In this document: in pieces, positions 45,024-64,000 of the stretch | Numbering within the stretch: position 1 is the stretch's first letter | Layout of the letters: the number at the start of each line of letters is the position of its first letter | Program-made: the position numbers and the translations under genes | Virus record (IMG/VR): IMGVR_UViG_3300042460_000724 | Coordinates: 1 to 64,000 of that record | From: a virus | Strand: one strand, 5' to 3' | DNA: 64,000 nucleotides | Notes under the pieces: generated by a model | What the model was told of the DNA's origin: nothing | The model's input: only the letters and a program-made list of their open reading frames with translations | The model's database searches: none

Positions 45024-45800
45024 TTATCTTTTTTCAATATTAGCTAACGTTTTCCTTGTTTTAGTCATATCAGCACACGTATACTTCTGATAACTAGCTT
45101 TCAATATCTCCGGCATAGGAATCTCTACTACTTTTACATTAAATGTGTTTGCTACATCTAAAAAGCTAATAGGTTTCCCACTACCTATATTAAATATACC
45201 TGATTCTTTAATATTTAAAAACTGTAAATGCGTATCTATCACTTCTTCTACCGGTACAAAATCTCTTTTATGATCTGCACTATTCTCAAATACACGTATT
45301 TCACCTGTTTTTGATTGTTCATAAAACTGAAAGAATGGACTTGCTTGCTTATCTTTGTGTTCTTCGCCTACACCATTAGATGCGTATACATTGAAATATC
45401 TAAATCCTTGTACTATACTGCCTGTAGGATGTTTCTCTACATATCTTTCAAACAAATACTTGCTCCAAGCGTATGGATTTCTTGGATCTACAGGTGCTGT
45501 TTCACTAAAATCAGTCCCTAATCCATACACGCTTGCACTACTAGAATATTGCATATTAACTCCAAACGTCTTACATTCTTCATATAAGTCTATGCTAAAC
45601 TCTGTATTCTGTCTAAGTATCTTATCTATATCACGCTCAGTGGTGCTACTGATTCCTCCCATATGAATGACCCATTCGAATTCCATTACGCTAGGTCTAA
45701 TTCCATCTGACCATTCAAATGTCGTAACATCGTGTTCTTTTAGTGCTTTAAGCATATAACTGCCAATAAAGCCGTTGTGTCCAGTTAATAGTATTTTCAT
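45024..45800 (-). CDS. hldD: ADP-L-glycero-D-manno-heptose 6-epimerase
   Basis: TG..GFIG, SSTTE.D, YSSSASVYG, YAWSK, RYFNVY, RDF and YQ.YT.AD. Confidence 0.88.
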   Translation of the reverse strand: MKILLTGHNGFIGSYMLKALKEHDVTTFEWSDGIRPSVMEFEWVIHMGGISSTTERDIDKILRQNTEFSIDLYEECKTFGVNMQYSSSASVYGLGTDFSETAPVDPRNPYAWSKYLFERYVEKHPTGSIVQGFRYFNVYASNGVGEEHKDKQASPFFQFYEQSKTGEIRVFENSADHKRDFVPVEEVIDTHLQFLNIKESGIFNIGSGKPISFLDVANTFNVKVVEIPMPEILKASYQKYTCADMTKTRKTLANIEKR

Positions 45801-46090
45801 CTAAAATATGTACCTACATTAAAAGCTTTATCATCTATCCACATATCATATGCAGGTTTACCTACCTCAGCCGTAGTATACTTAACACCCCAATCATTCA
45901 ATTGTTTAAGTGTAAGTTCAAGCCAATTCTTACCTGTATTACTGCCACGTGCTGTCCAATAATGTATCTCGTTGCCTGCGTCATATAACTTATTAAAATG
46001 TTCTATACGTGATAGATACGGTTCTGCGTTTGCATAATCTCCATTAGTTGTAGTACAAATAGTACCATCAATATCTACTATAATTTTCAT
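45797..46090 (-). CDS. Small HAD-superfamily phosphatase
   Basis: VDIDGTI, WTARG, GKP..D.WIDDK. Confidence 0.85.
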   Translation of the reverse strand: MKIIVDIDGTICTTTNGDYANAEPYLSRIEHFNKLYDAGNEIHYWTARGSNTGKNWLELTLKQLNDWGVKYTTAEVGKPAYDMWIDDKAFNVGTYFR

Positions 46091-46443
46091 TTCTGACTGT
46101 CTCCCGGTAATACTCTATAGTTATCTTCTACACTATCAGGTGTACTAACTTCAATAATAGTACCTTCTTCTAAGCATATAACCTGATGAGGTTGAAGTGG
46201 TCTATTGCGCCATACTTCACCCTCTTTTAATGTAACATCGTGTAAGCTAGCATCTTGCGTTTCAATGAATTTAATCATAAATAATCCACTTAATATATAC
46301 CAACTTTCATCCTTTTCAGCGTGAAAATGCATACTGAATTTTGCACCCTTATTGAATTTCAATAACTTGCCGCAATACTTATCAGTAGTAGCCCATATCA
46401 ATTCGTGGCCCCAACCTTTTTCTACAAATCCTTCAAGTCGCAT
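46087..46443 (-). CDS. Cupin sugar isomerase-like protein
   Basis: VEKGWG.E...SMHFH..KDE...H...EVST.D..ED.YR. Confidence 0.8.
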   Translation of the reverse strand: MRLEGFVEKGWGHELIWATTDKYCGKLLKFNKGAKFSMHFHAEKDESWYILSGLFMIKFIETQDASLHDVTLKEGEVWRNRPLQPHQVICLEEGTIIEVSTPDSVEDNYRVLPGDSQK

Positions 46444-47188
46444 TTATTTCCTCCAATGTAGGTGCGTATACACCAACGTGTTGCACTGTAATAGAACTAG
46501 CTCTGATGGCAAACTCTATTGCTTGTTCCATATCGTCTGCTACTAAGTAGCCATATGTTAACGCTGATAAGAAGGTGTCCCCCGCTCCACAAACATCAAA
46601 CACATCTACTTTAGGTACACTAAATGTTTTATTATTATATGATACCCCGCTACTACCACGTGTTAATACCATATTAGAACAATCACTAATTCTACTAGAA
46701 TATTCTGTTTCGTTAATCTTTACAATGCAACCTTCAAATAGTTTTAAATCACGTTTCTTGGTATCAACAAAGATAGGACCTTCATACTGTTGTCTAATAC
46801 CCTTAATAAAATCTTCTGTGACAAATCCTTTAGCATAATCAGATATAACTACAGCATCACTACCTTCTAGAAATTTCATTACATAATCTAAATTGCAGGG
46901 ATTAGACTTTACATCATCATCTATACGCATTAAATGTTGCTTAGACTTTGCATCTATTAAACGTTTCTTTTTAGATGGGTCTCCCAAGAATGAGGTGACA
47001 TTTAGTCCCAATGCTAATAGATTTTCTTTAACATTACTTCCCATACCTGATTTAGTTTCAGTGTGTTTAGGAACAAAAACAGGTACAGGAGCTTCAGGGC
47101 TCATTCTATCTACTGTACCATATTGATATTCATCAATGCAGGTGTCGCCTATTAATATAATTTTCAATTGTCTTTGTGGTTGATTCAT
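46433..47188 (-). CDS. hldA: Heptose-7-phosphate kinase (HldE kinase domain, PfkB)
   Basis: GD..ID.Y..G...RMSPEAPVPV, ISDY.KG and DVCGAGDTF. Confidence 0.9.
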   Translation of the reverse strand: MNQPQRQLKIILIGDTCIDEYQYGTVDRMSPEAPVPVFVPKHTETKSGMGSNVKENLLALGLNVTSFLGDPSKKKRLIDAKSKQHLMRIDDDVKSNPCNLDYVMKFLEGSDAVVISDYAKGFVTEDFIKGIRQQYEGPIFVDTKKRDLKLFEGCIVKINETEYSSRISDCSNMVLTRGSSGVSYNNKTFSVPKVDVFDVCGAGDTFLSALTYGYLVADDMEQAIEFAIRASSITVQHVGVYAPTLEEINAT

Positions 47189-47540
47189 CTATTACCCTAT
47201 CAAAGAATACTAATTCCTCAGCATACTCCGAACCTATTACTTTTTTATTCTTCCAATCACTTCCGACTATCATAATGTTCGGCTTGTATTGTTCAATGAT
47301 ACTCTCTAACTCAAAATCAGTATTGAATACTAATACCTTATCTACTGCTTTTAAATTACTGAGTAATGCTACCCTATTATCTATTTTGTTGAATGGTCTA
47401 TCACTACCTTTTTTCTCGGTTACACGATTATCAGAATCAATTGCAACCAATAGATATGTGCCTAAACTCTTTGCATAGTTTAATAAGTCTAAATGACCCA
47501 TATGTAATATATCAAACGTTCCATTAACAAAAACTTTCAT
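47133..47540 (-). CDS. hldC: Heptose-1-phosphate adenylyltransferase (HldE C-domain)
   Basis: NGTFDILH.GH, DSD.RV..KG..RP and STT. Confidence 0.88.
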   Translation of the reverse strand: MKVFVNGTFDILHMGHLDLLNYAKSLGTYLLVAIDSDNRVTEKKGSDRPFNKIDNRVALLSNLKAVDKVLVFNTDFELESIIEQYKPNIMIVGSDWKNKKVIGSEYAEELVFFDRVIDESTTKTIENYINRRHLH

Positions 47541-47570
47541 ACACTATTCTAACATAACCTGTAGTAAATA

Positions 47571-48575
47571 TCAAGCTTTTTGTTCCAAAAATTGATGGGC
47601 AGTTTCTAATGATGAACTAATAGCCATATGCATATCAATATACACATACATTCCACAACGTCCAATAAACGTATTTTTTGTATTTTCGATAGCTTTATAC
47701 TTCTTATATAACTCTCTATATGTATCAATTGGATAATAACGTTCATTATTATTGTCTTTATAATCACAAGGTTCTTCAAATGTTAATGTTGTATTACCCG
47801 TATTAATATTATTGGGTAGTTTATTCCATTCAGTCATTCTGGTAAACGAACCATTATCAGTAAAATTAACTACGGTAGTAGGTAACATACTGGGTGAGGG
47901 AAACGTTATTGAATGAAATTTAATAGACCTATATGGTAATTCCCCGTATATGAAATCATAATATACATCTATGGGCATAGAATTAAAGATATGATCATAA
48001 TTATCTTCCATACTCTTATCAAACATCGTATTCAACTTAACGGTAATGTTTGGATGATTTAATATATTAGTGAATAATGTCGTATATCCGTGTGTCGGTA
48101 GATATTGATATTCATCTCTAAAATATCTACTGTCGTCATTATCTCTAGTACTAACTCGATTTAATACGTCTTTGCTTAGTGTTTTATAATGTTCTCCCCA
48201 CATCTTTTTACTGTAGGGTTCAAAAAATGTATTGTTTATATCTTCTTTTTTTACTGTTTCTAATGTGATTGTGTTAACCGGAAACGGTACATATTTGCCA
48301 CTTTCCAGTAACGCCAACACGTGATGTTCATAGAATGTCCACTCGGTAAATTTACTAACCCAATCAAATACTTTTTTGTTACTAGTATGAAAGATATGCG
48401 GTCCATATTTATGAATGCGTAATCCGTGTTCATTGATATAGTCATATGCATTACCACCAATATGGTCTCTATTATCAATAACTATTACGTTGTAATTGTT
48501 TTCTGCAAGTTCTCTCGCTACTACACTACCAGCAAAGCCTGCCCCTACTATTAAGATATTTTGTTTTGTTCCCAT
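47571..48575 (-). CDS. glf: UDP-galactopyranose mutase
   Basis: GAGF.G, HIGGNAYD, YGPHIFHT, LPYRS, YYP and GR.G.Y.Y. Confidence 0.93.
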   Translation of the reverse strand: MGTKQNILIVGAGFAGSVVARELAENNYNVIVIDNRDHIGGNAYDYINEHGLRIHKYGPHIFHTSNKKVFDWVSKFTEWTFYEHHVLALLESGKYVPFPVNTITLETVKKEDINNTFFEPYSKKMWGEHYKTLSKDVLNRVSTRDNDDSRYFRDEYQYLPTHGYTTLFTNILNHPNITVKLNTMFDKSMEDNYDHIFNSMPIDVYYDFIYGELPYRSIKFHSITFPSPSMLPTTVVNFTDNGSFTRMTEWNKLPNNINTGNTTLTFEEPCDYKDNNNERYYPIDTYRELYKKYKAIENTKNTFIGRCGMYVYIDMHMAISSSLETAHQFLEQKA

Positions 48576-49351
48576 AATTCTTCCAAATCTTTTACATAAA
48601 AAGATATATCTTTAGCTTCCCCTAAATGAATAGCTAAAGTTTTCATAGGCATCATCATCCTAACTTCAGGTTGTTGCCATACTTTACTTATTGTGTTACC
48701 TTCCCAATAGCCTTCTATTGTGCCGATATCCAATAAACTATAAAATTCTTCTTTATATTTTTTAAATAAATTTACTGGTATTAAAAATGATTCGTGTGTA
48801 AACCAAGTATTTCTATAATATCTATCTGGTCCTGGTATAACCATACAGGGATAAACATATGTTCCGTTGAAGGGATTCTGTGGATGATAGTATAGTTGAT
48901 TAAAATCTTGAGGAAAAATACATATAGTTAACTCAGGACTAATAGATTCTAAATAGTTTCTTGCATCTATCATTGTAGCAATACTATTTGGATAATGCAA
49001 ATAGTCATCTTCTACTAGATAAACAAGTTCATCGTCCGGTAACTGACTAATGTAGTCTAATGCAATCTTTAAACTATATCTAGATTTTTGTTTAATATCT
49101 TTAAATTCAATTGTTGGATCAACTACTACATCTTGTATTGTAGCATTAGCAAAATGGTTATGTAAGAACTGTTTAGTCTCAATGGAAGAATCATCATCAA
49201 TTACGTGTAAACTAAAAGGGTTATTATAATTAGTTAATGACGTTACTAGTGAGTTATAACATCTTTTTACACATTCGTCTTTTGGCACAATGCGATTACT
49301 TGCCAATGAGGCTTTATCACAGGTCCTTAATACCACATTTAGTTTTTGCAT
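48551..49351 (-). CDS. GT-A fold glycosyltransferase
   Basis: VIDD.S...YLVEDDYLH; start at TAATG 49351. Confidence 0.75.
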   Translation of the reverse strand: MQKLNVVLRTCDKASLASNRIVPKDECVKRCYNSLVTSLTNYNNPFSLHVIDDDSSIETKQFLHNHFANATIQDVVVDPTIEFKDIKQKSRYSLKIALDYISQLPDDELVYLVEDDYLHYPNSIATMIDARNYLESISPELTICIFPQDFNQLYYHPQNPFNGTYVYPCMVIPGPDRYYRNTWFTHESFLIPVNLFKKYKEEFYSLLDIGTIEGYWEGNTISKVWQQPEVRMMMPMKTLAIHLGEAKDISFYVKDLEELWEQNKIS

Positions 49352-49485
49352 TACTTCAAGCCTAAACTCTTGCAAATATGTGCTAGATGGATTTTGTCCG
49401 AGCTCGGTAAGCCCGTAATAAGAATACGTGGTGTCATACTATTTCCTGTAAAATATTTATAATAGAGACAGTATAACCATTTATT

Positions 49486-49905
49486 TTACATCAAAGCGTC
49501 TACTTCTTCATGTGTCGTAGCGGCTTCAATTTGAGCTATTTTTGCTAATAATGTTTCTTTGGCAGCACTAACCAAACTAGTATCAAATTCTTCTGCAGGA
49601 TTAGCACTCAGTTGTAGTTGTATTTGTTGGTAAACAACCTGCTGAAATAATCCATTAGCTTGTCCGATTAACGAACCTTTGCGTTCATCTATTTCTAAAT
49701 CACGTTTACCCCAAATAATTTCAACTGGACTTTTACTAAGATCAAATGTGTGTGTGGTCATTATTTCACGATTTTGTATTAGATCAGGGATTATTTCAAC
49801 TGCTTCATTCCAACCATCTTGACCTGCAGGTGGTGCGGAGTCCCAGCAGTCTGTTACTGAATTATCTATTACCCTTACCCAATATCCTGTTTTAATTGTA
49901 CTCAT
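49486..49905 (-). CDS. Tail-fibre assembly/chaperone-like protein
   Basis: C-terminal I.AATT.EEVDA. Confidence 0.5.
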   Translation of the reverse strand: MSTIKTGYWVRVIDNSVTDCWDSAPPAGQDGWNEAVEIIPDLIQNREIMTTHTFDLSKSPVEIIWGKRDLEIDERKGSLIGQANGLFQQVVYQQIQLQLSANPAEEFDTSLVSAAKETLLAKIAQIEAATTHEEVDALM

Positions 49906-49967
49906 TTTAAATGTTCCTTATATTATATTTATATTAACTTTTCTTGTTTTTTTGTATAACTAAAATA

Positions 49968-50792
49968 TCAGTTAGGTGGATTTTTTCCTAAAGTTTCTAA
50001 TAATTTTGATTTCAATAATATGTCTAATGGTACATTCTGATAGATGTAAGTTAATATGCCGCGTACCTGTGTATATCTTTCATCTTTGTGAGTGTGATTG
50101 ATAAACACTATCCCGCAAGTAACATAGTTTTCTAAATCTTCTATTTTATAATAATGCGCCAACAAGTACCATAAAGTCCAACAGTTAGTTGGATTGCTTT
50201 CAAACTCATCTTTTAACATTTTTATATACAATTCAGGGCGAGATTGTTTTTTAAAATCTTGGTCATGTATTAGATAGATATTTTCATTATATATTTCAAC
50301 TTCATATCTATCTTTGTGCTTAAACCAAAGATGTTCATAGATAGGTTGTGCCCAAGTATAATCGTGTCTACGATGTATTTTGTTTGTACCTAAAAAGTTA
50401 GGAGGACCTACTCTAACATTTTCTGTATATAAATCTAATCTATCACACGATATGTTAGTAACAGTAGGATTAGCTTCCATTGTGTTTTTCATTTCAGCTA
50501 ACACATTGATACTGAAATATTCATCTAGATCCGGACTTAAACACCAATCTACGTCAGTAGGAATCATATCTAAGTTGTAGTTACGTGCTACATTAAATAT
50601 CCATGGGGTGAATATCTTTTGCTCAATAATCAGATTAGGATCGACCTTTGCAGCCTCTTGAAACATTTCCCAAGTCCCGTCAGTTGAACCGGTATCAAGT
50701 ATCACTCTATATGTAAATTTTTTGGTATAGTATAACCACTTCTCTACGTATTGAAGTTCATTTTTACAGATTGTATATGCTGCCGTTTTCAT
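49968..50792 (-). CDS. GT2 glycosyltransferase with TPR-like tail
   Basis: I.KNE, DTGSTDGT, F..ARN, D.DE and W..PI.E. Confidence 0.88.
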   Translation of the reverse strand: MKTAAYTICKNELQYVEKWLYYTKKFTYRVILDTGSTDGTWEMFQEAAKVDPNLIIEQKIFTPWIFNVARNYNLDMIPTDVDWCLSPDLDEYFSINVLAEMKNTMEANPTVTNISCDRLDLYTENVRVGPPNFLGTNKIHRRHDYTWAQPIYEHLWFKHKDRYEVEIYNENIYLIHDQDFKKQSRPELYIKMLKDEFESNPTNCWTLWYLLAHYYKIEDLENYVTCGIVFINHTHKDERYTQVRGILTYIYQNVPLDILLKSKLLETLGKNPPN

Positions 50793-51394
50793 TCTTGTGT
50801 CTTAATAAATGATGTCTGTGATCCGTCTGGAATATTCAATATGTTTAACTTATGCCAATTGCATTGTATAAACATCTCCACTGCCATTCGCACACTCATC
50901 TGTGCTGATTGTGTGCCATTTTTGTCGGTATAACGCCAAGTAGTGGTATCGTCACATAAAATAACTCCACCTACACGTAGTATTTTCCAAGCTAATACCA
51001 AGTCTGTTAATACTTCGCTTGCTTTGTGATCTCCGTCAATATATATAAACTCTGCGTTGACGTTGTTATTAATCAAATCAATTAGTCCATCTGTACTATG
51101 TTTTTGTATATAAGTTACATTGTTATTTTTATTGAACCCAAGATTATCTAAGAAGTTTTGTTTTACAATATTAAAATCCTCGCTCATATCATTACTACCA
51201 ATATGCGGGTCTATTGCATATATTTTCAGGTTAGGATTATACGGTGTAAGTTGGTCACTCATCCAAAATGTTGTAGAGCCTTCAAACACACCAATTTCTA
51301 CAATTGTATTTGGTACTCCGTATGTGTTTACTAAGTGACCAACATTAGTCATTGCACCCTTACCACAATTAAAATCCATGCTAAATTTGTACAT
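50789..51394 (-). CDS. SAM methyltransferase (Methyltransf_24-like)
   Basis: VEIGVFEGS, IDP, IYIDGDH and GG....DD. Confidence 0.88.
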   Translation of the reverse strand: MYKFSMDFNCGKGAMTNVGHLVNTYGVPNTIVEIGVFEGSTTFWMSDQLTPYNPNLKIYAIDPHIGSNDMSEDFNIVKQNFLDNLGFNKNNNVTYIQKHSTDGLIDLINNNVNAEFIYIDGDHKASEVLTDLVLAWKILRVGGVILCDDTTTWRYTDKNGTQSAQMSVRMAVEMFIQCNWHKLNILNIPDGSQTSFIKTQE

Positions 51395-51999
51395 TATTGC
51401 TTTCTATATATAACTATATTCTTCTCAGGATTGATATAGGGTGTTTCTTTTACTTTAGTTAAGAGTTTCTCTATTGCAGTAAACACATTGAAGTAGTCAT
51501 TATCCCAGATAACAAAGCCCTTAGAGTCTACATCACTGGGTATGAATCTGTTATCTTCATTTATTAAAACTAAGTAACCGTTTGGTTTTAGCGTATTGAC
51601 TATCTTTTCTATCTCTTGTTGTGGGTTCTCTACGTGTTGTAATACAAATACCGCTAAACATACATCTACTGAATTTTCATCGGGTAGTTGTGATATTATT
51701 TTAAACTTCCTTGGGTTAGAAACATATAGGGTAGCAAAAGTTTTCATACTTTCACTGATATCAAAACCCAATACAGAGCAATCAAACTTAGTAATTAGTT
51801 CTTTACTAACACGACCCATACCACAACCAAAGTCTAATACAGTTGATTGATTAGTAATAATGTTTTCATTATATATTGTATCAACTAAGAAATGTGTTTC
51901 TTTGTGGAACTTTTCTGGTTTATCAGATTCAAAGCTGAGAACCACATTCATTGCCTGAGTGATTGTGGTTACATCAAATGCTTCTTTAACATATCTCAT
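51394..51999 (-). CDS. Class I SAM methyltransferase
   Basis: VLDFGCGMGR, DIS, VLQH and LKPNG. Confidence 0.9.
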   Translation of the reverse strand: MRYVKEAFDVTTITQAMNVVLSFESDKPEKFHKETHFLVDTIYNENIITNQSTVLDFGCGMGRVSKELITKFDCSVLGFDISESMKTFATLYVSNPRKFKIISQLPDENSVDVCLAVFVLQHVENPQQEIEKIVNTLKPNGYLVLINEDNRFIPSDVDSKGFVIWDNDYFNVFTAIEKLLTKVKETPYINPEKNIVIYRKQ

Positions 52000-52715
52000 G
52001 TTTTAAGTTTATCGTTACGTTCCGTAGTTCTACCGGTTAATGGTCTAGCTAGAATTGTAGTGTCAGTAGTTACGTTTATGTTTTTATCATAAGCGAACAT
52101 ACCTTGATGTGTAATATTAAACAAGTCTGCTCTCATCATAATATCTAACGGAGCACATATACCCATTTTTAATACGTGCGAGATTAAGTTCTTTGCCATT
52201 AATGGGTCTAATGCATATGCGTGGGCACGACAGATAAACAGATAATTAGGTCCTTCACTAGCGTGAGGTGGTATAGTTGGATGTATTTTCCATCCTTGCT
52301 CTGCCCACTCAGCACCGCCTAGGTAACATATTGAGTTAACTGAATCATATGAAGTAAACTTCTTAGTCATAATGCTATCGTGTTCTAAGATAACAATAGG
52401 CTTATCAATCTTGGCGCAATGAACCCACAGGCTGATGTGACTTAATGCACAAGCAACTTCACCTCTAGTTAAGTAATGGTCTGTAATCTTTAGCATTTTG
52501 ATTACTGAATCACCTACGCTGTGGTCAGGTACTGTAATTTCAGAGCCAATGCCGTTGAAGGCATCCCATACTTTATATTGCATACCTACATTCATACAAC
52601 TGAGTTGGCATCGTTTAGAATACCGTTCAGATGATTCATTACCTTTTACAGTAATGATGTAAGCGTGTTCTACTTCAAAATCACGTTTATAGAATAAATT
52701 AAGATTTGTGTCCAT
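51996..52715 (-). CDS. GT25-like glycosyltransferase
   Basis: GEVAC.LSH..LW...ILEHD...AHAY...P.D. Confidence 0.82.
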   Translation of the reverse strand: MDTNLNLFYKRDFEVEHAYIITVKGNESSERYSKRCQLSCMNVGMQYKVWDAFNGIGSEITVPDHSVGDSVIKMLKITDHYLTRGEVACALSHISLWVHCAKIDKPIVILEHDSIMTKKFTSYDSVNSICYLGGAEWAEQGWKIHPTIPPHASEGPNYLFICRAHAYALDPLMAKNLISHVLKMGICAPLDIMMRADLFNITHQGMFAYDKNINVTTDTTILARPLTGRTTERNDKLKT

Positions 52716-54420: not shown

Positions 54421-54504
54421 ATTTTCTCCGTTATGTGTTGTGTTGGTTTTTTGTATATAAAACTGTAAAGTTATTTATATACAAAAAACGAAATTAATTA
54501 ATTT

Positions 54505-57500
54505 TTACTTAGTAAACCCGAAGTGATTAAAGCCATTTGATACGGTCACTGCAGAGTAACCAACCGACGTAATTGCCGGTATTAATGGGCGATTGTCGTT
54601 GAATCCCCATTCGTATAATACATTGTTAGGATCTATGACAAAAGTACTATTAAAATTCGCAGATACCTGTGTCCAAGATGATGTACCAATTTGTGTAGGC
54701 ACACTATACATATTAGGAGGAGTATATGCTTGATTAGTGCCTAATTGAACTGGGCTGGATTTAGAGATCCTATCATTTAGACCAAGTTGACCACTAGTAT
54801 TAAGACCCCAAACATAAAGTTTGTTATCATTGCGAGTAGCCATCGATGAATTTATATTGGATCCACCTTTATTTAAATTAGTATATATAGAAGTACCAAG
54901 TTGTACCGGAGCTGATCTAGATAGAATGTCTAATAATCCTAATTGACCATTAGCATTATTACCCCAAGTAAACAAATAGCCATCACTACGTATAGCAAAT
55001 TGACTTGCACCAGTTGTTGAAGTGATAGTCCAAGAATCGGTTGCTGTGGGCAAGAATATTGGACTTAATGCAGATGTTACTGAATTAATTCCCAATTCAC
55101 CATTGGTATTAGTTCCCCAAGTATATAAACCATATAACTGATCTAATCCAATAGTAAATAGACCACCAGCTGAGACCATAGCCCATGAACTTGTACCAAT
55201 TTGTATTGGGCTTGATTTTGAAATTATTGTACTATCCCCTAATTGACCACTAGTACCTAATCCCCATGTAAATAATAAGTTATCGCTACGTACACCAGCC
55301 ATATAGTTTACACCAGAACTAACAGATGTCCAACTAATAGTGCCTAGTTGTACCGGACTACTTCTTAGTATCACATCGTTTGTTCCTAGTTGTCCGCTAG
55401 CATTATTTCCCCAAACATATAATAGTCCATCACTAGTAATGGCTGCTGTTGCAACACTACCGGCTGAAATAATACTCCAGCTATTTGTACCTATTTGCAC
55501 AGGACTACTTCTGCTTAATATAGCATTGTCACCTATTTGACCATTAGTACCAAGTCCCCACATAAATAGTGCACCATCACTACGTATTGCACCACGTGAT
55601 GTATTTTTAGAAATACTTGTCCAAACAGTACCAACGCCAATTTGTACTGGACTACTACGAGAGACTGTATCATTTTGTGCTAATTCACCGTTTGTATTAA
55701 TACCCCAAGCCCATAGTTTATTAGTAGCATCAAGAGCCATAAAGTTTGCAAGACCTGTTGATGAAGATACGGTGGTCCAACTACTTGTACCAACTTGTAC
55801 TGGACTACTACGATGTACTAAATTATTTGATGCTAGTTGTCCTGATGCGTTATCACCCCAAGTAAACAATCCACCGTCAATACGAATAGCGACGGTTGAT
55901 GTAGTAAATAAACCAACAGCAGTCCAAGAGCTTGTGCCAATTTGTACTGGACTGCTACGAGATATTGTATCATTTAGACCTAGTTGTCCACTAGTACCTA
56001 AACCCCACATAAACAATGCACCGTCACTACGAATGGCAGCACTAGTAGACAGTCCAGTTGATATTGTATTCCAGCTTAAGGCTGCAGGTTTGCTTGTAGT
56101 AGTCAAGTATGTCTGTTGTATCTCTGCACTTGTGAATGAATTTACTTGTACTGGACTAGACCTATTAGCAATGGATCTATCTCCTAATTGTCCACTAGCA
56201 TTACCGCCCCAAACATATAATAAATTATTTGTATTAATTGCAGAAGTTGAGCTTTGTCCAGCACTTACTATATTCCAGCTTGTACCAACTTGAACTGGAC
56301 TACTGCGGGATAATACTGTAGTATCTCCAAGTTGTCCTGTAGTATTAATACCCCAAGTAAACAATCTATTATCAGATGTAATTCCACCCACAAAAGTTAC
56401 GCCTGCACTTATTTGTGCCCAACTACTTGCGCCAATTTGTACCGGAGCAGATCGAGATATGATAGTAGTATCACCTATTTGACCACTAGCGTTAAGACCC
56501 CAAGCAAATAACAAGTTATCAATACGTATACCATATGATGTAGTTCCACCTGAGCTTACTGCATTCCATGACTCATTTATTGATCGGATAAATACTGGAC
56601 TACTTCTGGCTCCAAGAGATTCACTTAATCCAAGCTGTCCATTATTATTTTGTCCCCAAATGAAAAGTTGATTATCAGTATAAGTCAACGCCATAGTTAC
56701 TCCAGGAGACGTGCCTATACTAACCTGTGACCAACTGCTTGTACCAATTTGTACTGGACTACTACGAGGTAATATTGTATTGTCTCCTAGTTGACCATTA
56801 GTATTAATACCCCAAGACCAAAGAGTGTTGTCAAGACGTAAGGCAGTGGTTGTAGCAAATCCAGTTGATATAACAGACCAACTGCTTGTACCAATTTGTA
56901 CTGGACTACTACGAGGTAATATTGTATTGTCTCCTAGTTGACCATTAGCATTAATACCCCAAGACCACAGTGTAGAGTTAGTTCGGATAGCCATAGCATA
57001 CGACAGTCCGGCTGACACACTAGACCAACTGCTTGTACCTATTTGTACTGGACTACTGCGTGGCACGATAGTAGTTGATCCTAATTGTCCACTAGTATTA
57101 TCTCCCCAGGAGAAAAGAGCACCATCCAAACGTATAGCATATACACTTACATCTCCGGCACTAACCTTTGTCCAACTACTTGTACCAACTTGTACAGGAC
57201 TACTACGATGTAGTATAGTGCCATCACCTAATTGTCCGGCGTTATTATTACCCCAAGTAAACAATGCACCATCACTACGTATTGCACCAACACAAGCCAG
57301 AGTACTTACAAGAGTTCCTGTTGCAACACTTCCTGAAACTATAGTCCAGCTACTTGTACCAACTTGTACAGGACTACTGCGATGTACTAAGTCATTTTGA
57401 CCTAATTGTCCTATTGTATTTAATCCCCATGACCACAACGTATTATCATTACGGATTGCATACATTGCATTATTGCCTATTGATATCTGAGACCAGCTAG

Positions 57501-60500
57501 TTGTACCCAATTGTATTGGACTATTTGTATTAACAGTCGAATTTTGTCCTAGCTGTCCAAATGAATTAATTCCCCAAGTAAACAATGCTCCGTCACTACG
57601 TATTGCCGCTGAACTCCCAATAGACCCACCTGCATTGATTTTGGTCCAACTGAATCCTGTTTTACCGGTAGCAGTTAAGTAAGTACTTTGTAGAGTGTTA
57701 TTTGTAAATGAACTAATTTGTACTGGGCTACTCTTGTTAGCCACAAACAGTTGACCAAGTTGTCCACTAGCACCTGCACCCCAACCATATAATACGTTGT
57801 CTGCGGTTAATGCTAAAGTTGTAAAGTCGGTTCCTGCTGTTATTCCACCTGCACTAACAGTAGTCCAACTACTTGTACCTATTTGAACTGGGCTACTACG
57901 ATGTAATATAGTGTCATCACCCAAATTACCAACTGCGTTATTACCCCAAGTAAATAGTGCACCATCACTACGTATACCTGCAAAATGTCCGGCTGAGCTA
58001 GATAATGCAGTCCAACTATATGCGGTAAACGTATTAGCGGCAGGGTTACCCCAACCATACAATTTGTTATTTGTCTTTATACCTACATTATGGCTATAAC
58101 CTGCACTAATTTTACTCCATGTATCTCCTGTGATTTGTGTAGGCATTGGTTGGTAGCTAGCAATTTGTACTGGACTAGATTTACTTACTACAGTATTATC
58201 ACCAATAGCGCCGTAGCTAGCACCCGAACCCCAACCATAAAACAATAGATTACCATCGAGCACACCGTAACTATTAGTAGATCCAGTACCAATTATAGAC
58301 CAACTACTTAAACTTACTAATGTTGGGCTAGATGTAGCAACAACAGAGTTAATACCTAATTCTCCGCTGCCGTTACCACCCCAAGTATATAGTAACTTAG
58401 TAGAAGTTAACCCTACCATATGGCTTTGACCAACAGTAATTTGTGACCAGCTACTTGTACCAAGTTGGGTTGCACTACTACGGTGGACTAGATCACCTAA
58501 ACCTAATTGTCCATTAGCATTTTGCCCCCATACAAATAATAAACTATCACTGCGTATTGCAGCCGCAGTGTTTACATTCATTGATACTTGTGACCAAGAC
58601 TCATTAGCAGTACGAATGAACACCGGGCTAGTAGATTGTGTAACAGTATTATTGCCTATTGCACCAACAGCATTTTGCCCCCATACAAATAATTGCCTGC
58701 TTGTGTTATCTATAGCTGCCGTATTAATATATAATCCACTAACCTTATACCAAGTACTAGTACCAATTTGTACCGGACTAGATCGGGAGATAGCAGTACT
58801 ATCTCCTAATTGACCGTTTGTGTTTAGTCCCCAGCCCCATAATGTATTATCACTACGAATAGCAACTGAGTATTGATTACCTGCGTTAACACTTGTCCAA
58901 CTACTAGTACCAATCTGTACTGGACTACTTCTAGGGAGAACATTAGTTAAACCTAAACCACCATTAGTATTAATGCCCCATGACCACAATGTATTATTGT
59001 TTAGTAGTCCTACCATGTGTGAGTAACCAACTGCTATTTGACTCCAACTACCTGCACCAAGTTTTACAGGACTAGATTTACTTACTACGGTATTATCACC
59101 TAACTGTCCGTTTGTATTAATTCCCCAAGTGAATAGTCCGCCGTCACTACGCAATGCGGCAGTTATAGCACCATTAGTACTAACCTGTGTCCAACTACTT
59201 GTACCAACTTGTACAGGACTACTACGAGCTACAAGATCACCTAGTCCTAGTTGACCACTAGCATTAATTCCCCAGGCAAATAAAGCACCACCAAGTCGTA
59301 TTGCAGTTACAGTCGATATCCCTGCCGCAACACTTGTCCAACTACTAGTACCAATCTGTACTGGACTACTGCGTGGCAATACATCAGTTGTACCTAATTG
59401 TCCACTAGTATTTAGACCCCACACAAATAATGCTCCATCGTTACGTATAGCATATGTAGAAAAATCTCCCACTGCTACCTGAGTCCAACTGCTTGTGCCA
59501 ATTTGTACTGGACTACTACGATGGATGATAGTATTATCTCCTACACCGCCGTTGTTATTAGTTCCCCACGTGAATAATGCTCCATCATTACGTATGGCTG
59601 CAGTCATACCATTTACACCACCGGAGCTTATTACAGACCAACTAAATGTTGTTGTTCCAGTTGCAGTTAAATAACTATTTTGCTGTGCAAGAGAATATAT
59701 CGATCCTACTTGGGTTGGACTACTTTTATTGACAGTATCATTTAAACCAAGACCACCGATGCCGTTAATACCCCATGTAAATAACAAACCATCACTACGT
59801 ATACCAGCCATAGTTGTAGCTGCCTTACTATTAATTAAAGTCCAACTACTTGTACCAATTTGTACTGGGCTACTTCTACTAAGTATTGTACTATCCCCTA
59901 GTTGACCACTAGTACCTAATCCCCAAGTCCATAAACTACCATCATTACGTATAGCCCCAAGTCCACCTACTTTACTCCAAGTAGTATCGGTACCAATTTG
60001 AACTGGACTACTGCGGTGGACTAAATCATTTAACCCTAAATATCCGTCAGTGTTGTTACCCCAAGCCCACAATGTACCATCACTGCGTATAGCTGTAGTC
60101 CAAGATGTTTCCGAATTAACCTGTATCCAACTACTAGAACCAACTTGTACTGGACTGCTTCTATGAAATATATCACTCAGTCCTAATTGTCCAGATTCGT
60201 TAGCTCCCCAAGTCCATAAACTACCGTCACTACGAATACCAGTGAATCGTAAATTTTGTCCAGTCAATATTGACCAAGATGTTGGAGAATTAACCGGCAA
60301 TATAAAGTTTGTGGGACTTAATGTTGGATTATATGGCCATTGTTGATATTGTAATCCCCACCCATACAATGTATTATCTGATGCAATAGCAAGTGAATGT
60401 ACGTTGCCAGCACTTATTTGTGACCAACTACTAGTACCAAGTTGTACTGGACTACTACGATGTAATCCCTCATTATTTACCTGATATGAACTATTATTAC

Positions 60501-63500
60501 CCCAGGCAAATAATTTATTAGTACTAGAAATAGCAAGCACGTGACTTATACCTGCACTAACTTGTGACCAACTGCTAGCACCTATTTGTGTTGGGCTATT
60601 TGAGTATGGTGTTGCACCAACTTGTACTGGGCTACTACGATGTTCTAACCAACTACCTGATATAGTTGTTGGATTAAATGCTAATCCTAGTGCTCCATTA
60701 GTGTTATTACCCCATATATATGCTATACCAGTAGTTGTGATTGCATTGGTTATTCCTGAACCGGCAGCACTAACACTTGCCCAGTCGCTATTATTACCTA
60801 TTTGAGTAGGATATGATTTACTAGTTGTAGAATTATCACCCAACTGTCCAAAAGTTGTATTAATTCCCCAAGTAAATAGTTTTCCATCGGATCTAATAGC
60901 TGATGACAAGCTTTGTCCAGCGCCAACGCTAATCCAGGAATCATTCATTGAGCGAATGAATACCGGGCTACTGCGGCTGGTAATTCCTAATATACCCAAT
61001 TCTCCACTAGTACCAAGTCCCCAAGTAAATAATGCGTTACCTGTATCGGCTGCAGTAATACCTAAAATGTTAGTATAGCCAGTTACCATTGTCCAACTAT
61101 TTGCACCAATTTGTACAGGGAATGATTTAGCAACTGTGGTACCATCACCCAATGATCCAGCAGTATTATTTCCCCAAGCAAACAGTAAACCATCACTTCG
61201 TATTCCTGATAATCCTGCAACAACTGTACCAATTGCAGTCCAAGAATCTGCTACTGAACGAATGAATACTGGGCTGGATCTACCGGCAACAACACCATTA
61301 CCAATAACGCCATCCCCACCTGCAGTAGTTCCCCATGTAAACATTTGCCCATTTGCATCAAGTGCGACTATTGCACTACCTGCATTAACGGTAGTCCAAC
61401 TACTTGTACCTGTAGTAAGTGTTGGACTAAAATATGTGTTCACTAGTGAGTTATTACCAAACTGTGCATTAGCTCCACTACCCCACATATATAGTAAATT
61501 ACCACTTATACCGGCTGTGACTGTGCCGCCTGCAGTTACTACACTCCAACTACTTGTACCAATTTGTACAGGACTACTACGATGTTGGGTAGAATCCGGA
61601 GTTCCTAACACACCACTAGTACCTGCACCCCAAGTGAATAATGAACCATCACTGAGAATTGCTACTGTCCATGATAAACCAGATGCTACTGCAGTCCAAC
61701 TGCTACTACCAATTTGTACTGGGCTACTACGATTTAGAGCAGTGCCATCACCTAGTTGTCCAAATGTGTTTACTCCCCATGCATATAATGCGCCAGTAGT
61801 ACGTATAGCATTACTTCTATTATTTGCAGAATAAACTTTTGACCATGTGTTTTCAGTACCGATTTGTACTGGACTACTACGAGCTACTACTGTGTTTAAT
61901 CCCAGTTGACCTACATCATTAGCACCCCAACTCCATAATGTACCATCACTACGAACCGCTAATACTGTACCGCCGGTAGTGTTAAACGGTCCTGTTGCAA
62001 CAGCAGTCCAACTACTTGTACCAACTTGTACCGGGCTACTACGATGAGCCTGTGTACCATCACCTACAGTACCTGCAGTGTTAACTCCCCAAGTCCATAA
62101 TGTATTATCACTACGTATGGCAGCCGTGAATGATGCTCCTGCTGATACTGTCAACCAGCTATTAGTACCAACTTGTACAGGACTACTACGATGCACTATG
62201 TCATTTAGACCTAATGCGCCATTGATGTTATTACCCCATGCAAACAATAAGCCGTCATTACGAATAGCAAACATTGTATTATTGGTATTTACCACAGTAG
62301 ACCAACTGTAACCAGTCTTACTTGTCTTTGTCAAATATGCCTGTTGTTCTGCAGGTGAAGAGAACGAAACAATTTGTACAGGGCTATTACGAGCAACTAC
62401 AGTTCTATCCCCTAATGCACCACCTGAACCAGAACCCCACGTGTACAATGTATTGTTAGCCATTATACCTGCTGTTGTACCAGATGCTTGTGTAGCAACA
62501 ATATTCCAATTACTTGTACCAAGTTGTACAGGGCTACTGCGTGAAATTGAGTCACCGATGCCAAGCTCACCGGCTGTATTTAATCCCCATGCAAATAATT
62601 TACTATCAGTTCGTATTGCAAATGTGCTGTTACCATTTGCTGTTACTAATGTCCAGCTGTTACCCGTACCTACTTGTACTGGGCTACTTCTAGCGATAAT
62701 ATCGTTTACTCCAAGATTACCAGAACCATTGACTCCCCAACCATATAATTTTCCATCCAACGTAATAGCAAAGGTAGATGTAGCGTTAGTTGTACTATTA
62801 GATGGTACAACTGACCAACTACTTGTGCCTAGTTGAACTGGGCTACTACGATGTACTAAATCATTTAGACCAAGTTGACCATTAAAATTGCCACCCCAAA
62901 CAAATAATAGTCCGTCACTTCTAATAGCGTAAGTATGGCTTATGCCAGCAGCAATACCACTCCAATTACTTGTTCCTATTTGTACCGGACTACTTCTGTG
63001 TAGAATATCATTTAAACCAAGTTGTCCGATACTGTTAGTTCCCCATGCAAATAACTTACTATCGCTACGAATAGCAAATGAAGTAGATGCACCTGCGGTT
63101 ACTGTAGTCCAACTCAATGTTCTAGGTTTACCTGTACTAGTTGACCAAGCAATTTCATCAGCTAATGTAATTAGTGATGAAATTATTACAGGTAATAAGA
63201 TTGTTCCTGGAGCATTACCTGTACCCAATTGACCATTATCATTATTGCCCCAACCGTATAAAACATTGTCCATGGTTAAAGCTAATGTATGAGTAGAGCC
63301 GGTGCTTATCATAGTCCAGCTACTTGTACCAACTTGTACTGGACTTGATTTTAGTATGACGGTGTTGTCCCCCAATTGACCAACATCATTATTACCCCAT
63401 GACCATAATGTTTTATCATTACGAATGGCCGCGGTAAATGTATCACCCTGTGCAACTTGGTACCAAGTATTAATAGTTGCATTTACTTGCACTGGGCTAC

Positions 63501-63999
63501 TAGTATCTACTACACTGTTAATACCTAATTCACCGACTGTATTACCGCCCCATGCGTATAAATACCCATTACCATTAGTGTAGTCCTGTATTATTCCCAT
63601 GCGTCCAGCAACCATAGTCCAACTACTTGAACCAATTTGTACTGGACTAGATTTATTTACAATTGAGTTGTCACCTAATCCACCATACGTATTATTACCC
63701 CAAGTAAATAAGGCTCCATCACTTCTTATTGCAGAAACAACGTATGCATTTCCAATATCACCAGATTGTCCTGCACTAACCATAATCCAGCTACTTGTAC
63801 CAACCTGTACTGGACTACTGCGATGTACTGTGTCATTAAGGCCCAATTGTCCTTGGCTATTAAGTCCCCATGACCACAAATAATTATTAGTGTCAATACT
63901 AAAAGCATTACCGAAGCCTGCCGCTAGTTGTTTCCAACTACCGGTACCTATTTGTACTGGACTACTTCTATTAATACCATCATTCTCTCCTAACTCCCC
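54505..63999 (-). CDS. Giant RCC1/BLIP-II repeat beta-propeller protein, 5'-truncated (probable virion adhesin/fibre)
   Basis: About 60 repeats of W(S/T)xVxAG...AIRxDGxLxxWGxNxxGQLG...RSSPVQIG; frame is open to the window end. Confidence 0.92.
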   Translation of the reverse strand, partial: GELGENDGINRSSPVQIGTGSWKQLAAGFGNAFSIDTNNYLWSWGLNSQGQLGLNDTVHRSSPVQVGTSSWIMVSAGQSGDIGNAYVVSAIRSDGALFTWGNNTYGGLGDNSIVNKSSPVQIGSSSWTMVAGRMGIIQDYTNGNGYLYAWGGNTVGELGINSVVDTSSPVQVNATINTWYQVAQGDTFTAAIRNDKTLWSWGNNDVGQLGDNTVILKSSPVQVGTSSWTMISTGSTHTLALTMDNVLYGWGNNDNGQLGTGNAPGTILLPVIISSLITLADEIAWSTSTGKPRTLSWTTVTAGASTSFAIRSDSKLFAWGTNSIGQLGLNDILHRSSPVQIGTSNWSGIAAGISHTYAIRSDGLLFVWGGNFNGQLGLNDLVHRSSPVQLGTSSWSVVPSNSTTNATSTFAITLDGKLYGWGVNGSGNLGVNDIIARSSPVQVGTGNSWTLVTANGNSTFAIRTDSKLFAWGLNTAGELGIGDSISRSSPVQLGTSNWNIVATQASGTTAGIMANNTLYTWGSGSGGALGDRTVVARNSPVQIVSFSSPAEQQAYLTKTSKTGYSWSTVVNTNNTMFAIRNDGLLFAWGNNINGALGLNDIVHRSSPVQVGTNSWLTVSAGASFTAAIRSDNTLWTWGVNTAGTVGDGTQAHRSSPVQVGTSSWTAVATGPFNTTGGTVLAVRSDGTLWSWGANDVGQLGLNTVVARSSPVQIGTENTWSKVYSANNRSNAIRTTGALYAWGVNTFGQLGDGTALNRSSPVQIGSSSWTAVASGLSWTVAILSDGSLFTWGAGTSGVLGTPDSTQHRSSPVQIGTSSWSVVTAGGTVTAGISGNLLYMWGSGANAQFGNNSLVNTYFSPTLTTGTSSWTTVNAGSAIVALDANGQMFTWGTTAGGDGVIGNGVVAGRSSPVFIRSVADSWTAIGTVVAGLSGIRSDGLLFAWGNNTAGSLGDGTTVAKSFPVQIGANSWTMVTGYTNILGITAADTGNALFTWGLGTSGELGILGITSRSSPVFIRSMNDSWISVGAGQSLSSAIRSDGKLFTWGINTTFGQLGDNSTTSKSYPTQIGNNSDWASVSAAGSGITNAITTTGIAYIWGNNTNGALGLAFNPTTISGSWLEHRSSPVQVGATPYSNSPTQIGASSWSQVSAGISHVLAISSTNKLFAWGNNSSYQVNNEGLHRSSPVQLGTSSWSQISAGNVHSLAIASDNTLYGWGLQYQQWPYNPTLSPTNFILPVNSPTSWSILTGQNLRFTGIRSDGSLWTWGANESGQLGLSDIFHRSSPVQVGSSSWIQVNSETSWTTAIRSDGTLWAWGNNTDGYLGLNDLVHRSSPVQIGTDTTWSKVGGLGAIRNDGSLWTWGLGTSGQLGDSTILSRSSPVQIGTSSWTLINSKAATTMAGIRSDGLLFTWGINGIGGLGLNDTVNKSSPTQVGSIYSLAQQNSYLTATGTTTFSWSVISSGGVNGMTAAIRNDGALFTWGTNNNGGVGDNTIIHRSSPVQIGTSSWTQVAVGDFSTYAIRNDGALFVWGLNTSGQLGTTDVLPRSSPVQIGTSSWTSVAAGISTVTAIRLGGALFAWGINASGQLGLGDLVARSSPVQVGTSSWTQVSTNGAITAALRSDGGLFTWGINTNGQLGDNTVVSKSSPVKLGAGSWSQIAVGYSHMVGLLNNNTLWSWGINTNGGLGLTNVLPRSSPVQIGTSSWTSVNAGNQYSVAIRSDNTLWGWGLNTNGQLGDSTAISRSSPVQIGTSTWYKVSGLYINTAAIDNTSRQLFVWGQNAVGAIGNNTVTQSTSPVFIRTANESWSQVSMNVNTAAAIRSDSLLFVWGQNANGQLGLGDLVHRSSATQLGTSSWSQITVGQSHMVGLTSTKLLYTWGGNGSGELGINSVVATSSPTLVSLSSWSIIGTGSTNSYGVLDGNLLFYGWGSGASYGAIGDNTVVSKSSPVQIASYQPMPTQITGDTWSKISAGYSHNVGIKTNNKLYGWGNPAANTFTAYSWTALSSSAGHFAGIRSDGALFTWGNNAVGNLGDDTILHRSSPVQIGTSSWTTVSAGGITAGTDFTTLALTADNVLYGWGAGASGQLGQLFVANKSSPVQISSFTNNTLQSTYLTATGKTGFSWTKINAGGSIGSSAAIRSDGALFTWGINSFGQLGQNSTVNTNSPIQLGTTSWSQISIGNNAMYAIRNDNTLWSWGLNTIGQLGQNDLVHRSSPVQVGTSSWTIVSGSVATGTLVSTLACVGAIRSDGALFTWGNNNAGQLGDGTILHRSSPVQVGTSSWTKVSAGDVSVYAIRLDGALFSWGDNTSGQLGSTTIVPRSSPVQIGTSSWSSVSAGLSYAMAIRTNSTLWSWGINANGQLGDNTILPRSSPVQIGTSSWSVISTGFATTTALRLDNTLWSWGINTNGQLGDNTILPRSSPVQIGTSSWSQVSIGTSPGVTMALTYTDNQLFIWGQNNNGQLGLSESLGARSSPVFIRSINESWNAVSSGGTTSYGIRIDNLLFAWGLNASGQIGDTTIISRSAPVQIGASSWAQISAGVTFVGGITSDNRLFTWGINTTGQLGDTTVLSRSSPVQVGTSWNIVSAGQSSTSAINTNNLLYVWGGNASGQLGDRSIANRSSPVQVNSFTSAEIQQTYLTTTSKPAALSWNTISTGLSTSAAIRSDGALFMWGLGTSGQLGLNDTISRSSPVQIGTSSWTAVGLFTTSTVAIRIDGGLFTWGDNASGQLASNNLVHRSSPVQVGTSSWTTVSSSTGLANFMALDATNKLWAWGINTNGELAQNDTVSRSSPVQIGVGTVWTSISKNTSRGAIRSDGALFMWGLGTNGQIGDNAILSRSSPVQIGTNSWSIISAGSVATAAITSDGLLYVWGNNASGQLGTNDVILRSSPVQLGTISWTSVSSGVNYMAGVRSDNLLFTWGLGTSGQLGDSTIISKSSPIQIGTSSWAMVSAGGLFTIGLDQLYGLYTWGTNTNGELGINSVTSALSPIFLPTATDSWTITSTTGASQFAIRSDGYLFTWGNNANGQLGLLDILSRSAPVQLGTSIYTNLNKGGSNINSSMATRNDNKLYVWGLNTSGQLGLNDRISKSSPVQLGTNQAYTPPNMYSVPTQIGTSSWTQVSANFNSTFVIDPNNVLYEWGFNDNRPLIPAITSVGYSAVTVSNGFNHFGFTK
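56729..56967. repeat. 92-bp direct repeat, 147-bp period, 1 mismatch
   Basis: 56729-56820 versus 56876-56967. Confidence 0.9.
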
Positions 64000-64000
64000 T

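Follow-up and report, generated by a model that had tools for sequence, protein, structure and literature searches.

A conserved RCC1 gene and its transferase-methyltransferase neighbour anchor a variable sugar-gene island in a T4-like phage

The window analysed here is a 64,000-nucleotide stretch of viral DNA from the start of the IMG/VR contig IMGVR_UViG_3300042460_000724, which is 110,305 bp long and has a CheckV completeness of about 31%. A gp23 match (T4-type major capsid protein) at the end of the contig indicates that the phage is T4-like. From position 45024 to the end of the window lies an island of 14 open reading frames (ORFs), all encoded on the minus strand and joined by overlaps or short gaps, as described in an earlier reading of the letters (here the original prediction). 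The conserved anchor of this island is a gene for an RCC1 propeller protein with, directly downstream, a gene for a soluble 573-aa enzyme that joins TPR-like helices, a glycosyltransferase (GT) domain of the GT-B type and an S-adenosylmethionine (SAM) methyltransferase domain. The two anchor genes are located as follows.

54505..64000, minus strand: RCC1-repeat giant, C-terminal 3164 aa of 4384 aa (ORF start 67659, outside the window)
52699..54420, minus strand: 573-aa three-part enzyme (TPR-like helices, GT-B, SAM methyltransferase)

The RCC1 giant and its downstream neighbour

The reading frame of the giant is open from 67659 to 54505, past the edge of the window, and encodes 4384 aa. It matches PF25390 with 1627 bits and PF00415 in 50 stretches, and its RCC1 repeats span from about residue 25 to the very C terminus. 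Serine accounts for 14% of the residues and threonine for 10.8%. The original prediction saw a Ser/Thr-rich protein repeating RSSPVQ.GTSSW dozens of times. The motif is indeed repeated (24 exact copies, 47 in the form RSSP[VI]Q), at a position that is fixed within every RCC1 repeat of roughly 50 residues, and it is thus the blade consensus rather than a separate Ser/Thr-rich tract. A reading of RSSPVQ.GTSSW as glycosylation sites was rejected, because the motif is RCC1 blade consensus and gives no evidence for such sites. The region upstream of the giant encodes a tail-assembly chaperone, an S74-chaperone fibre protein and LamG giants; fibre-region giants of 966, 1548, 1401 aa and more are encoded just upstream. 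The sugar genes reside in the tail-fibre region.

At E ≤0.001 the 573-aa protein finds more than 2200 full-length relatives, of which the best 120 listed are 69-92% identical to it. We took 80 IMG/VR loci with their flanks and collapsed them at 97% identity, yielding 47 lineages in which the upstream flank is 1.5 kb or longer. In 42 of these 47 (49-95% identity), an RCC1 ORF in the same orientation ends no more than 700 nt upstream of the 573-aa homologue, and in two more it does so within 1.4 kb. The upstream RCC1 proteins of these relatives range from 421 to more than 3300 aa.

The pair is also found in named phages. In the Synechococcus phage BUCT-ZZ01 (Kyanoviridae), the 573-aa homologue (UTS52179) is 49% identical, and the upstream gene annotated as a "BNR repeat domain protein" (UTS52180, L085 6131-8233) encodes an RCC1 propeller (PF25390, E 6e-138). 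In S-SRM01 the pair is present at 30% identity, with the RCC1 gene gp337 leading into the TPR protein gp338 behind the distal subunit of the long tail fibre. The order of genes there is long-tail-fibre distal subunit, RCC1, hypothetical, RCC1, TPR/GT9-like and 2-oxoglutarate (2OG) oxygenase, and further on RCC1, sulfotransferase, glycosyltransferase and epimerase. The RCC1 proteins of S-SRM01 are gp335, gp337 and gp344. Marine virus AG-345-E08 carries on one strand RCC1, RCC1, GT9-like, RCC1 and GT25 genes, then HldC-HldA-HAD-cupin. Overall, 13 of 50,697 phage records have an RCC1 match, and the four aquatic ones among them are exactly those with a GT9-like gene, as we call the 573-aa gene and its relatives from the fold of their transferase half. 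Phages of Clostridioides and Marinobacter encode RCC1 proteins as well (24-27% identity), but have no GT9-like gene. Our literature search found no paper on RCC1 proteins in cyanophages or on the RCC1/GT9-like gene pair. The heptose cassette described below was already known from the annotation of cyanophages.

The original prediction had proposed a check of whether GT9 and hld genes co-occur with RCC1 giants across phages. The GT9-like gene does so (42 of the 47 lineages, in addition to three independent phages, cultured or from single cells: BUCT-ZZ01, S-SRM01 and AG-345-E08). The hld genes are patchy: they accompany the 573-aa homologue in 14 of 43 scoreable lineages, and 33 of 34 phage records with HldA lack a detectable 573-like gene.

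Architecture of the 573-aa enzyme

An AlphaFold model of the 573-aa protein, built on 52 homologues, reached a predicted local distance difference test (pLDDT) score of 92.6. It contains four TPR-like helices (aa 3-76), a GT-B domain at about 94-359 and a class I SAM methyltransferase domain at about 367-560. A fold search with the GT-B half returned the Veillonella GT9 protein 3tov (VIA-align Z 17.2), WaaF (1psw, 17.1), TibC (4rap_B, 16.1) and WaaC (15.4-15.7), and the next GT-B fold outside GT9 scored 10.7. A chain of the spinach NDH-PSI-LHCI supercomplex (9grx_1) also appeared at rank 9 with Z 14.5, between the GT9 enzymes and the other GT-B folds. The methyltransferase half matches phrog_6636 (E 5e-13) and has fold matches of about Z 12. 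By sequence the transferase half is far less distinct. The protein scores 13.4 bits against PF01075 (E 0.049, residues 272-301), below the Pfam cut-off of 22; PDB searches with the protein and its profile gave nothing meaningful for this half; and the N-terminal domain has nothing above threshold in Pfam, NCBIfam or PHROGs. The earlier label of a GT9-methyltransferase fusion thus stands for the methyltransferase by both PHROG match and fold, and for the GT9 part by the fold model and not by Pfam. In the model the GT9-like fold holds. Membership in GT9 and the use of ADP-heptose do not follow from that fold.

The nucleotide-sugar motif of the 573-aa protein, ISSCTSVAHL, aligns with VSVDTGLSHL of WaaC and VTNDSGLMHV of WaaF, at low overall hhalign probability and in a clear motif register. 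WaaC D261, the conserved Asp of the C-terminal D(T/S)G..H motif, is needed for activity. At this position, shared by the WaaF Asp, the 573-aa protein has Cys288, and the Cys is invariant in 25 homologues. An invariant GGxGDE with D113 follows the first GT-B strand, with no confident residue-level alignment to D13, the N-terminal catalytic Asp of WaaC.

The GT9-like domain has 26,712 relatives in a representative library, P0122 among them. Many of these are very large TPR proteins (1300-3100 aa) in which the domain is repeated in tandem three to six times and matches PF01075 at the same motif. Some relatives are fused to sulfotransferase or FkbM methyltransferase domains.

We compared the enzyme with three characterized systems. 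WaaC and WaaF (CAZy GT9, PF01075) give the best structural matches and share the "xxSxxxxxxH-AAAxG" nucleotide-sugar motif. The 573-aa enzyme differs from them in falling below the Pfam threshold, in having the invariant Cys288 in place of Asp, in its extra domains and in the location of its gene, which lies in a phage fibre region, whereas theirs lie in the operon for the lipopolysaccharide (LPS) core. TibC/TibA and AAH/AIDA-I of E. coli (PDB 4RAP, 4RB4), which represent the bacterial autotransporter heptosyltransferases (BAHT), resemble the phage system in three respects: the enzyme is a soluble GT-B protein of GT9-related fold (TibC Z 16.1, root-mean-square deviation 3.1 over 249 residues), its gene adjoins that of a large repeat-rich surface protein thought to be modified in the cytoplasm, as RCC1 would be here, and a supply of ADP-heptose is at hand. 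However, the 573-aa enzyme is only 11% identical to TibC and carries the TPR-like head and the fused methyltransferase, and the putative acceptor is a beta-propeller rather than the beta-helix passenger of TibC/AAH. The fold match to TibC is not discriminating, since its Z score ties with those of the LPS heptosyltransferases.

The third system is FlmG, the flagellin O-glycosyltransferase of Caulobacter crescentus, a soluble enzyme whose N-terminal helical repeats bind the substrate while its C-terminal GT-B domain transfers the sugar (PMC7591256). The 573-aa enzyme may be likened to it by architecture, as both are modular, soluble enzymes with a GT-B domain behind N-terminal helices, and FlmG acts before its surface filament is assembled. 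The TPR domain of FlmG is about 310 aa long, compared to about 76 aa in the phage enzyme, and the FlmG donor is pseudaminic acid.

Island content, late-promoter motifs and the heptose cassette

Downstream of the 573-aa gene, the island consists of the following ORFs.

51996..52715, minus strand: GT25-family glycosyltransferase (PF01755 E 3e-13)
51394..51999, minus strand: SAM methyltransferase of Methyltransf_11 type (E 4e-16)
50789..51394, minus strand: SAM methyltransferase of Methyltransf_24 / O-methyltransferase type (E 6.5e-17)
49968..50792, minus strand: GT2-family (GT-A) glycosyltransferase (PF13704 28.0 bits, cut-off 27.5)
49486..49905, minus strand: 139-aa protein without assigned family (structure TM 0.59 to the Phage_tail_APC cluster)
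48551..49375, minus strand: probable GT2-like (GT-A) transferase, 274 aa, adjoining glf (PF00535 E 0.028 only)
47571..48575, minus strand: Glf, UDP-galactopyranose mutase (PF03275 E 7e-49, 166.7 bits; TIGR00031 E 5e-83)
47133..47540, minus strand: HldC-type heptose-1-phosphate adenylyltransferase (TIGR02199 E 6e-32, below equivalog cut-off)
46433..47188, minus strand: HldA-type heptose-7-phosphate kinase (TIGR02198 E 1e-39, below equivalog cut-off)
46087..46443, minus strand: metal cupin, 118 aa, candidate sedoheptulose-7-P isomerase or CapF-like sugar-nucleotide epimerase
45797..46090, minus strand: HAD-type phosphatase, 97 aa, candidate GmhB substitute (phrog_1238 E 1e-27; TIGR01689 E 4e-9; PF25109 E 0.015)
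45024..45800, minus strand: HldD-like ADP-heptose 6-epimerase, a short SDR (short-chain dehydrogenase/reductase) protein (TIGR02197 E 1e-58, below equivalog cut-off)

Several of these assignments refine the original prediction. Its "GT2-TPR" protein is a GT2 enzyme by PF13704 and has no TPR match; the TPR-like helices sit in the 573-aa protein. Its "chaperone-like" 139-aa protein has no family match in Pfam, NCBIfam or PHROGs, and its predicted structure resembles tail-assembly chaperones weakly, a lead only. The "GT-A" protein at 48551-49375 finds little in Pfam, and its protein-atlas features point to GT2 clusters, 60% of which carry PF00535. As glf adjoins it, this 274-aa protein is a candidate galactofuranosyltransferase. 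A UDP-Galf (UDP-galactofuranose) mutase is encoded as predicted: Glf also has the FAD-binding N terminus (PF13450, 70.4 bits) and scores 279 bits against TIGR00031, for which the cut-off is 303.75. No membrane segments are predicted in any island protein, and the island contains no flippase, polymerase, ligase or lipid-carrier transferase gene.

Class Ia ribonucleotide reductase (RNR) genes lie directly downstream of the island, and the RNR of the contig is nearest to those of T4-like phages that infect Xanthomonas and Stenotrophomonas. Among the phage records searched, matches to the heptose genes come only from cyanophages, marine viruses and uncultured phages. No psbA was found in the 110,305-bp record, a megablast search of the island against the 50,697 phage records gave no match, and a PHROGs search with ten other ORFs of the record gave almost none.

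A T4-type late-promoter motif, TATAAATA, occurs at three positions in the island.

54472..54479, minus strand: TATAAATA, 52 nt upstream of the 573-aa gene start
49926..49933, minus strand: TATAAATA, 21 nt upstream of the 139-aa ORF
49454..49461, minus strand: TATAAATA, 79 nt upstream of the GT-A-like ORF

Each of the island's three larger intergenic gaps thus contains the motif on the coding strand, against an expectation of about 0.03 occurrences. Over the whole window its count is not above chance (13 compared to 15 expected); only its placement in the island gaps is. Among 52 non-redundant relatives, nine have an exact TATAAATA within 120 nt upstream of the 573-aa homologue, compared to 0.4 expected. 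These motifs fit co-expression of the island with the structural genes. In many relatives the downstream border of the island is formed by the T4 neck protein, gp15 and terminase genes, which places the RCC1 gene there between fibre and neck genes.

The content downstream of the 573-aa gene is highly variable. Across the 80 loci, GT25 is present in 60 and a Methyltransf_24 gene in 29. A second GT9-like gene, encoding 395-410 aa and no methyltransferase half, directly follows the first in about 15 relatives, including L016, L037, L064, L068, L072, L076, L080 and L083. Sulfotransferases (PF13469) occur in six relative loci, and an APS-kinase-like (adenylylsulfate kinase) gene and hld cassettes are also found downstream. 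Glf was found among the relatives only in L005 and L038. These two loci, whose 573-aa proteins are 95% identical to that of the window, contain genes for a further GT9-like paralogue (595 aa) and for an APS-kinase-like protein (L038 14489-17561, L005 4425-7497), neither of which is present in the window counterpart (49376-49967). Together with the lack of the hld cassette, these extra genes indicate that island content differs even among the closest relatives.

Of 43 scoreable lineages, 14 carry HldA, HldC and the cupin. We mapped gain and loss of the cassette on a quick IQ-TREE tree of the 573-aa protein, on which it changes at least six times, three of them forced by well-supported branches. 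In the sister L038 (573-aa protein 95% identical, SH-aLRT 100), the hld cassette is absent. No HldA was found anywhere in five hld-negative contigs of 50-244 kb, nor in the complete BUCT-ZZ01 genome. Conversely, HldA occurs with the same neighbours in 34 phage records, all from cyanophages, marine viruses or uncultured phages (P-SSM2, P-SSM5, S-SSM7, S-CAM1/3 and S-T4 among them), and AG-345-E08 is the sole one with a detectable 573-like gene. The window HldA is 41-44% identical to the genes of P-SSM2, S-SSM7 and S-CAM1. In P-SSM2, HldC-HldA-HAD-cupin lies between tail-fibre genes, with HldD on the other strand. The T4-like cyanophage "LPS" clusters of P-SSM2, S-SSM7 and S-CAM1 contain the same HldC-HldA-HAD-cupin-HldD cassette as the island at 35-44% identity; unlike the window phage, these cyanophages lack the RCC1/GT9-like pair. 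The hld cassette is therefore a mobile accessory module, the same one that is annotated as LPS genes in marine cyanomyoviruses.

Original to the earlier reading was also that the phage makes its own ADP-heptose. Most of the route is encoded: kinase, adenylyltransferase and 6-epimerase are present (best families TIGR02198, TIGR02199 and TIGR02197, all below equivalog cut-offs). No SIS-type GmhA (PF13580) was found in the 110-kb record, which is about 31% complete, and the 97-aa HAD protein is much shorter than GmhB. Across the relatives the minimal phage cassette is HldC, HldA and cupin, while HldD and the mini-HAD can be absent. An invariant metal site (H39, H41, E46, H86) is present in the cupin, whose model (pLDDT 93.5) matches the C-terminal cupin of CapF (Z 15.9), phosphomannose isomerase (14.2) and D-lyxose isomerase (13.8). 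Its constant company with HldA and HldC, even without HldD or HAD, fits a core step such as sedoheptulose-7-P isomerisation, so that the cupin may be a non-homologous replacement for GmhA. A CapF-like sugar-nucleotide epimerase is also possible, because the CapF cupin is the best fold match. In public records, the cupin of the cassette is widely annotated as a cysteine dioxygenase. The PHROG 1238 name "phosphoheptose isomerase" has been copied into cyanophage records (e.g. PSSM2_311, L088 13312-13656); Pfam and NCBIfam identify this family as a HAD phosphatase, so that the isomerase name is probably a misannotation.

The patchiness of the cassette, which differs between the window phage and a 95% identical relative, indicates that heptose is optional and not the defining donor of the GT9-like enzyme. 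As the enzyme is kept in phages without heptose genes, its donor is probably not ADP-heptose. The original prediction had linked the heptose genes through the GT9-like enzyme to the RCC1 protein. This link did not survive: the cassette is patchy and is absent from the 95% identical sister and from BUCT-ZZ01, and the Asp of the heptosyltransferases is an invariant Cys. We also rejected, as a default, the assignment of the enzyme as a heptosyltransferase fed by the hld cassette, given the patchy cassette, the change of Asp to Cys288 and the 33 of 34 HldA records without the enzyme. Heptosylation by the 573-aa enzyme specifically is not supported.

Possible roles of the island

Virus-encoded soluble transferases decorate the virus's own structural proteins in mycobacteriophages, where capsid and tail are glycosylated, and in chloroviruses the multi-domain transferase A064R contains a methyltransferase domain that tailors the sugar. 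Such virion glycans have so far been described chiefly in mycobacteriophages and giant viruses, and these systems differ from the island in enzyme families, acceptors and virus groups. Our literature search found no paper on virion glycosylation in T4-like aquatic phages, and we know of no demonstration of it in them.

For the island we favour, at about even chances, a role in the glycosylation of fibres or virions, as a late-expressed and hypervariable glycan-decoration island of a T4-like freshwater phage. This reading builds on what was observed, namely gene content, folds, synteny, promoter motifs and the patchiness and mobility of the cassette, and from these we infer the acceptor, the donors and the presence of a glycan. 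The RCC1 protein and the 573-aa enzyme would form an acceptor-enzyme pair. Late in infection, the enzyme would associate with the propeller protein in the cytoplasm and attach a first sugar to it. The methyltransferase half would then methylate this sugar or a neighbouring one, and the variable genes (GT25, two GT2-like and two methyltransferases) would extend and tailor the glycan. In this phage, Glf would supply UDP-galactofuranose for the glycan, and the HldC-HldA-cupin-HAD-HldD cassette would supply ADP-heptose as an optional building block. FlmG may serve as the working model, its helical-repeat domain binding the substrate and its GT-B domain transferring the sugar, with TibC/TibA as a second one.

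A broader version of the proposal, to which we give slightly less than even chances, is that the RCC1 and TPR-like/GT9-fold pair is a widespread system in aquatic T4-like phages, including cyanophages. It would glycosylate, methylate and in relatives sulfate the phage's own propeller fibres, with swappable cassettes, such as the heptose LPS genes, diversifying the virion surface. If so, a function could be assigned to the cyanophage LPS clusters, which have been unexplained for twenty years, and the pair would represent a new class of phage host-range or anti-recognition determinant. Virion glycans would then be a variable layer of host recognition, of protection against proteases and grazers and of competition between phages. 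The LPS or cell-wall-modification genes of T4-like cyanophages and their freshwater relatives, which belong to the most abundant aquatic viruses, have been catalogued since 2005 without a tested function. The pair offers a compact two-gene test system, and one carrier, BUCT-ZZ01, can be cultured on Synechococcus elongatus PCC 7942, a genetically tractable host.

Several observations weigh against glycosylation of the RCC1 protein. Three lineages (L047/L048, L062 and L077) have no upstream RCC1 gene. The RCC1 giant, a presumed acceptor or fibre-region protein of putative virion membership, has no recognisable virion-attachment or trimerisation domain. The TPR-like head of the 573-aa protein consists of four helices only and has no Pfam TPR match, and the literature search found no virion glycoprotein data for phages that carry the pair. 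The two genes could also be adjacent because they share a site of frequent recombination in the fibre region, rather than because they encode an enzyme and its substrate. Finally, the LPS-core transferases WaaC, WaaF and GT25 are also soluble or peripheral, so that the lack of membrane proteins in the island is compatible with host LPS as the acceptor.

In one of the three exceptional lineages (L047/L048), the upstream neighbour of the enzyme gene is a 2576-aa giant (L048 2096-9826) with no RCC1 match and a weak match to DUF6242. This giant may be a different class of acceptor.

An explanation with a host acceptor, which is the classical reading of such cyanophage genes and which we consider unlikely, is that the island supplies ADP-heptose and UDP-Galf and remodels the host envelope during infection, adding methylated sugars to the LPS core, an exopolysaccharide or the S-layer, which would serve to block superinfection or the re-adsorption of progeny to lysing cells. 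HldA, HldC, HldD, GT25 and the GT9 fold all belong to LPS-core families, and of the 34 phage records with the same hld cassette, 33 are without the RCC1/GT9-like pair. In those phages the cassette has been read as LPS genes that modify the host surface since Sullivan et al. 2005 (PMC1079782), and cyanophage cell-wall-modification genes are still read as altering the host surface (PMC12801897). However, the late-promoter motifs and the location within structural modules do not favour such a role, the GT9-like gene is tightly and anciently adjacent to RCC1 genes, and the island has no lipid-carrier, flippase or ligase gene. The replacement of the heptosyltransferase Asp by Cys also argues against it, and even the P-SSM2 cassette sits between tail-fibre genes.

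If the virion is the target, the acceptor could still be another protein, such as the LamG giants, the S74 fibre, the capsid or the sheath, with RCC1 as a mere neighbour or a lectin-like adhesin that binds glycans. Known phage virion glycosylation, from the mycobacteriophage work, targets capsid and tail-tube proteins. Several giant fibre-region proteins are encoded just upstream, and in three lineages the enzyme gene has no RCC1 gene upstream. We nevertheless regard this as doubtful, and more so than envelope remodelling, as no neighbour other than RCC1 is retained across relatives of 30-95% identity, while the other fibre genes change.

Least probable is that there is no functional coupling, with a fibre-region hot spot collecting "moron" cassettes and the sugar genes acting in unrelated processes such as metabolism or DNA modification, the latter suggested for cyanophage glycosyltransferases (PMC12801897). 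The very variable content downstream of the 573-aa gene and the gain and loss of the hld cassette would agree with it. A hot spot, however, predicts variable neighbours on either side, whereas the RCC1/GT9-like junction hardly varies. Neither the GT9-like nor the GT25 fold is known from DNA glycosyltransferases, and the island genes form a coherent set for activation, transfer and tailoring.

Genes for 2OG-Fe(II) oxygenases were observed beside the GT9-like gene in S-SRM01 (gp339, L086 9758-10216) and beside the hld cassette in P-SSM2 (PSSM2_314, L088 14795-15292). Their location hints that hydroxylation may be an additional step of tailoring or may prepare the acceptor.

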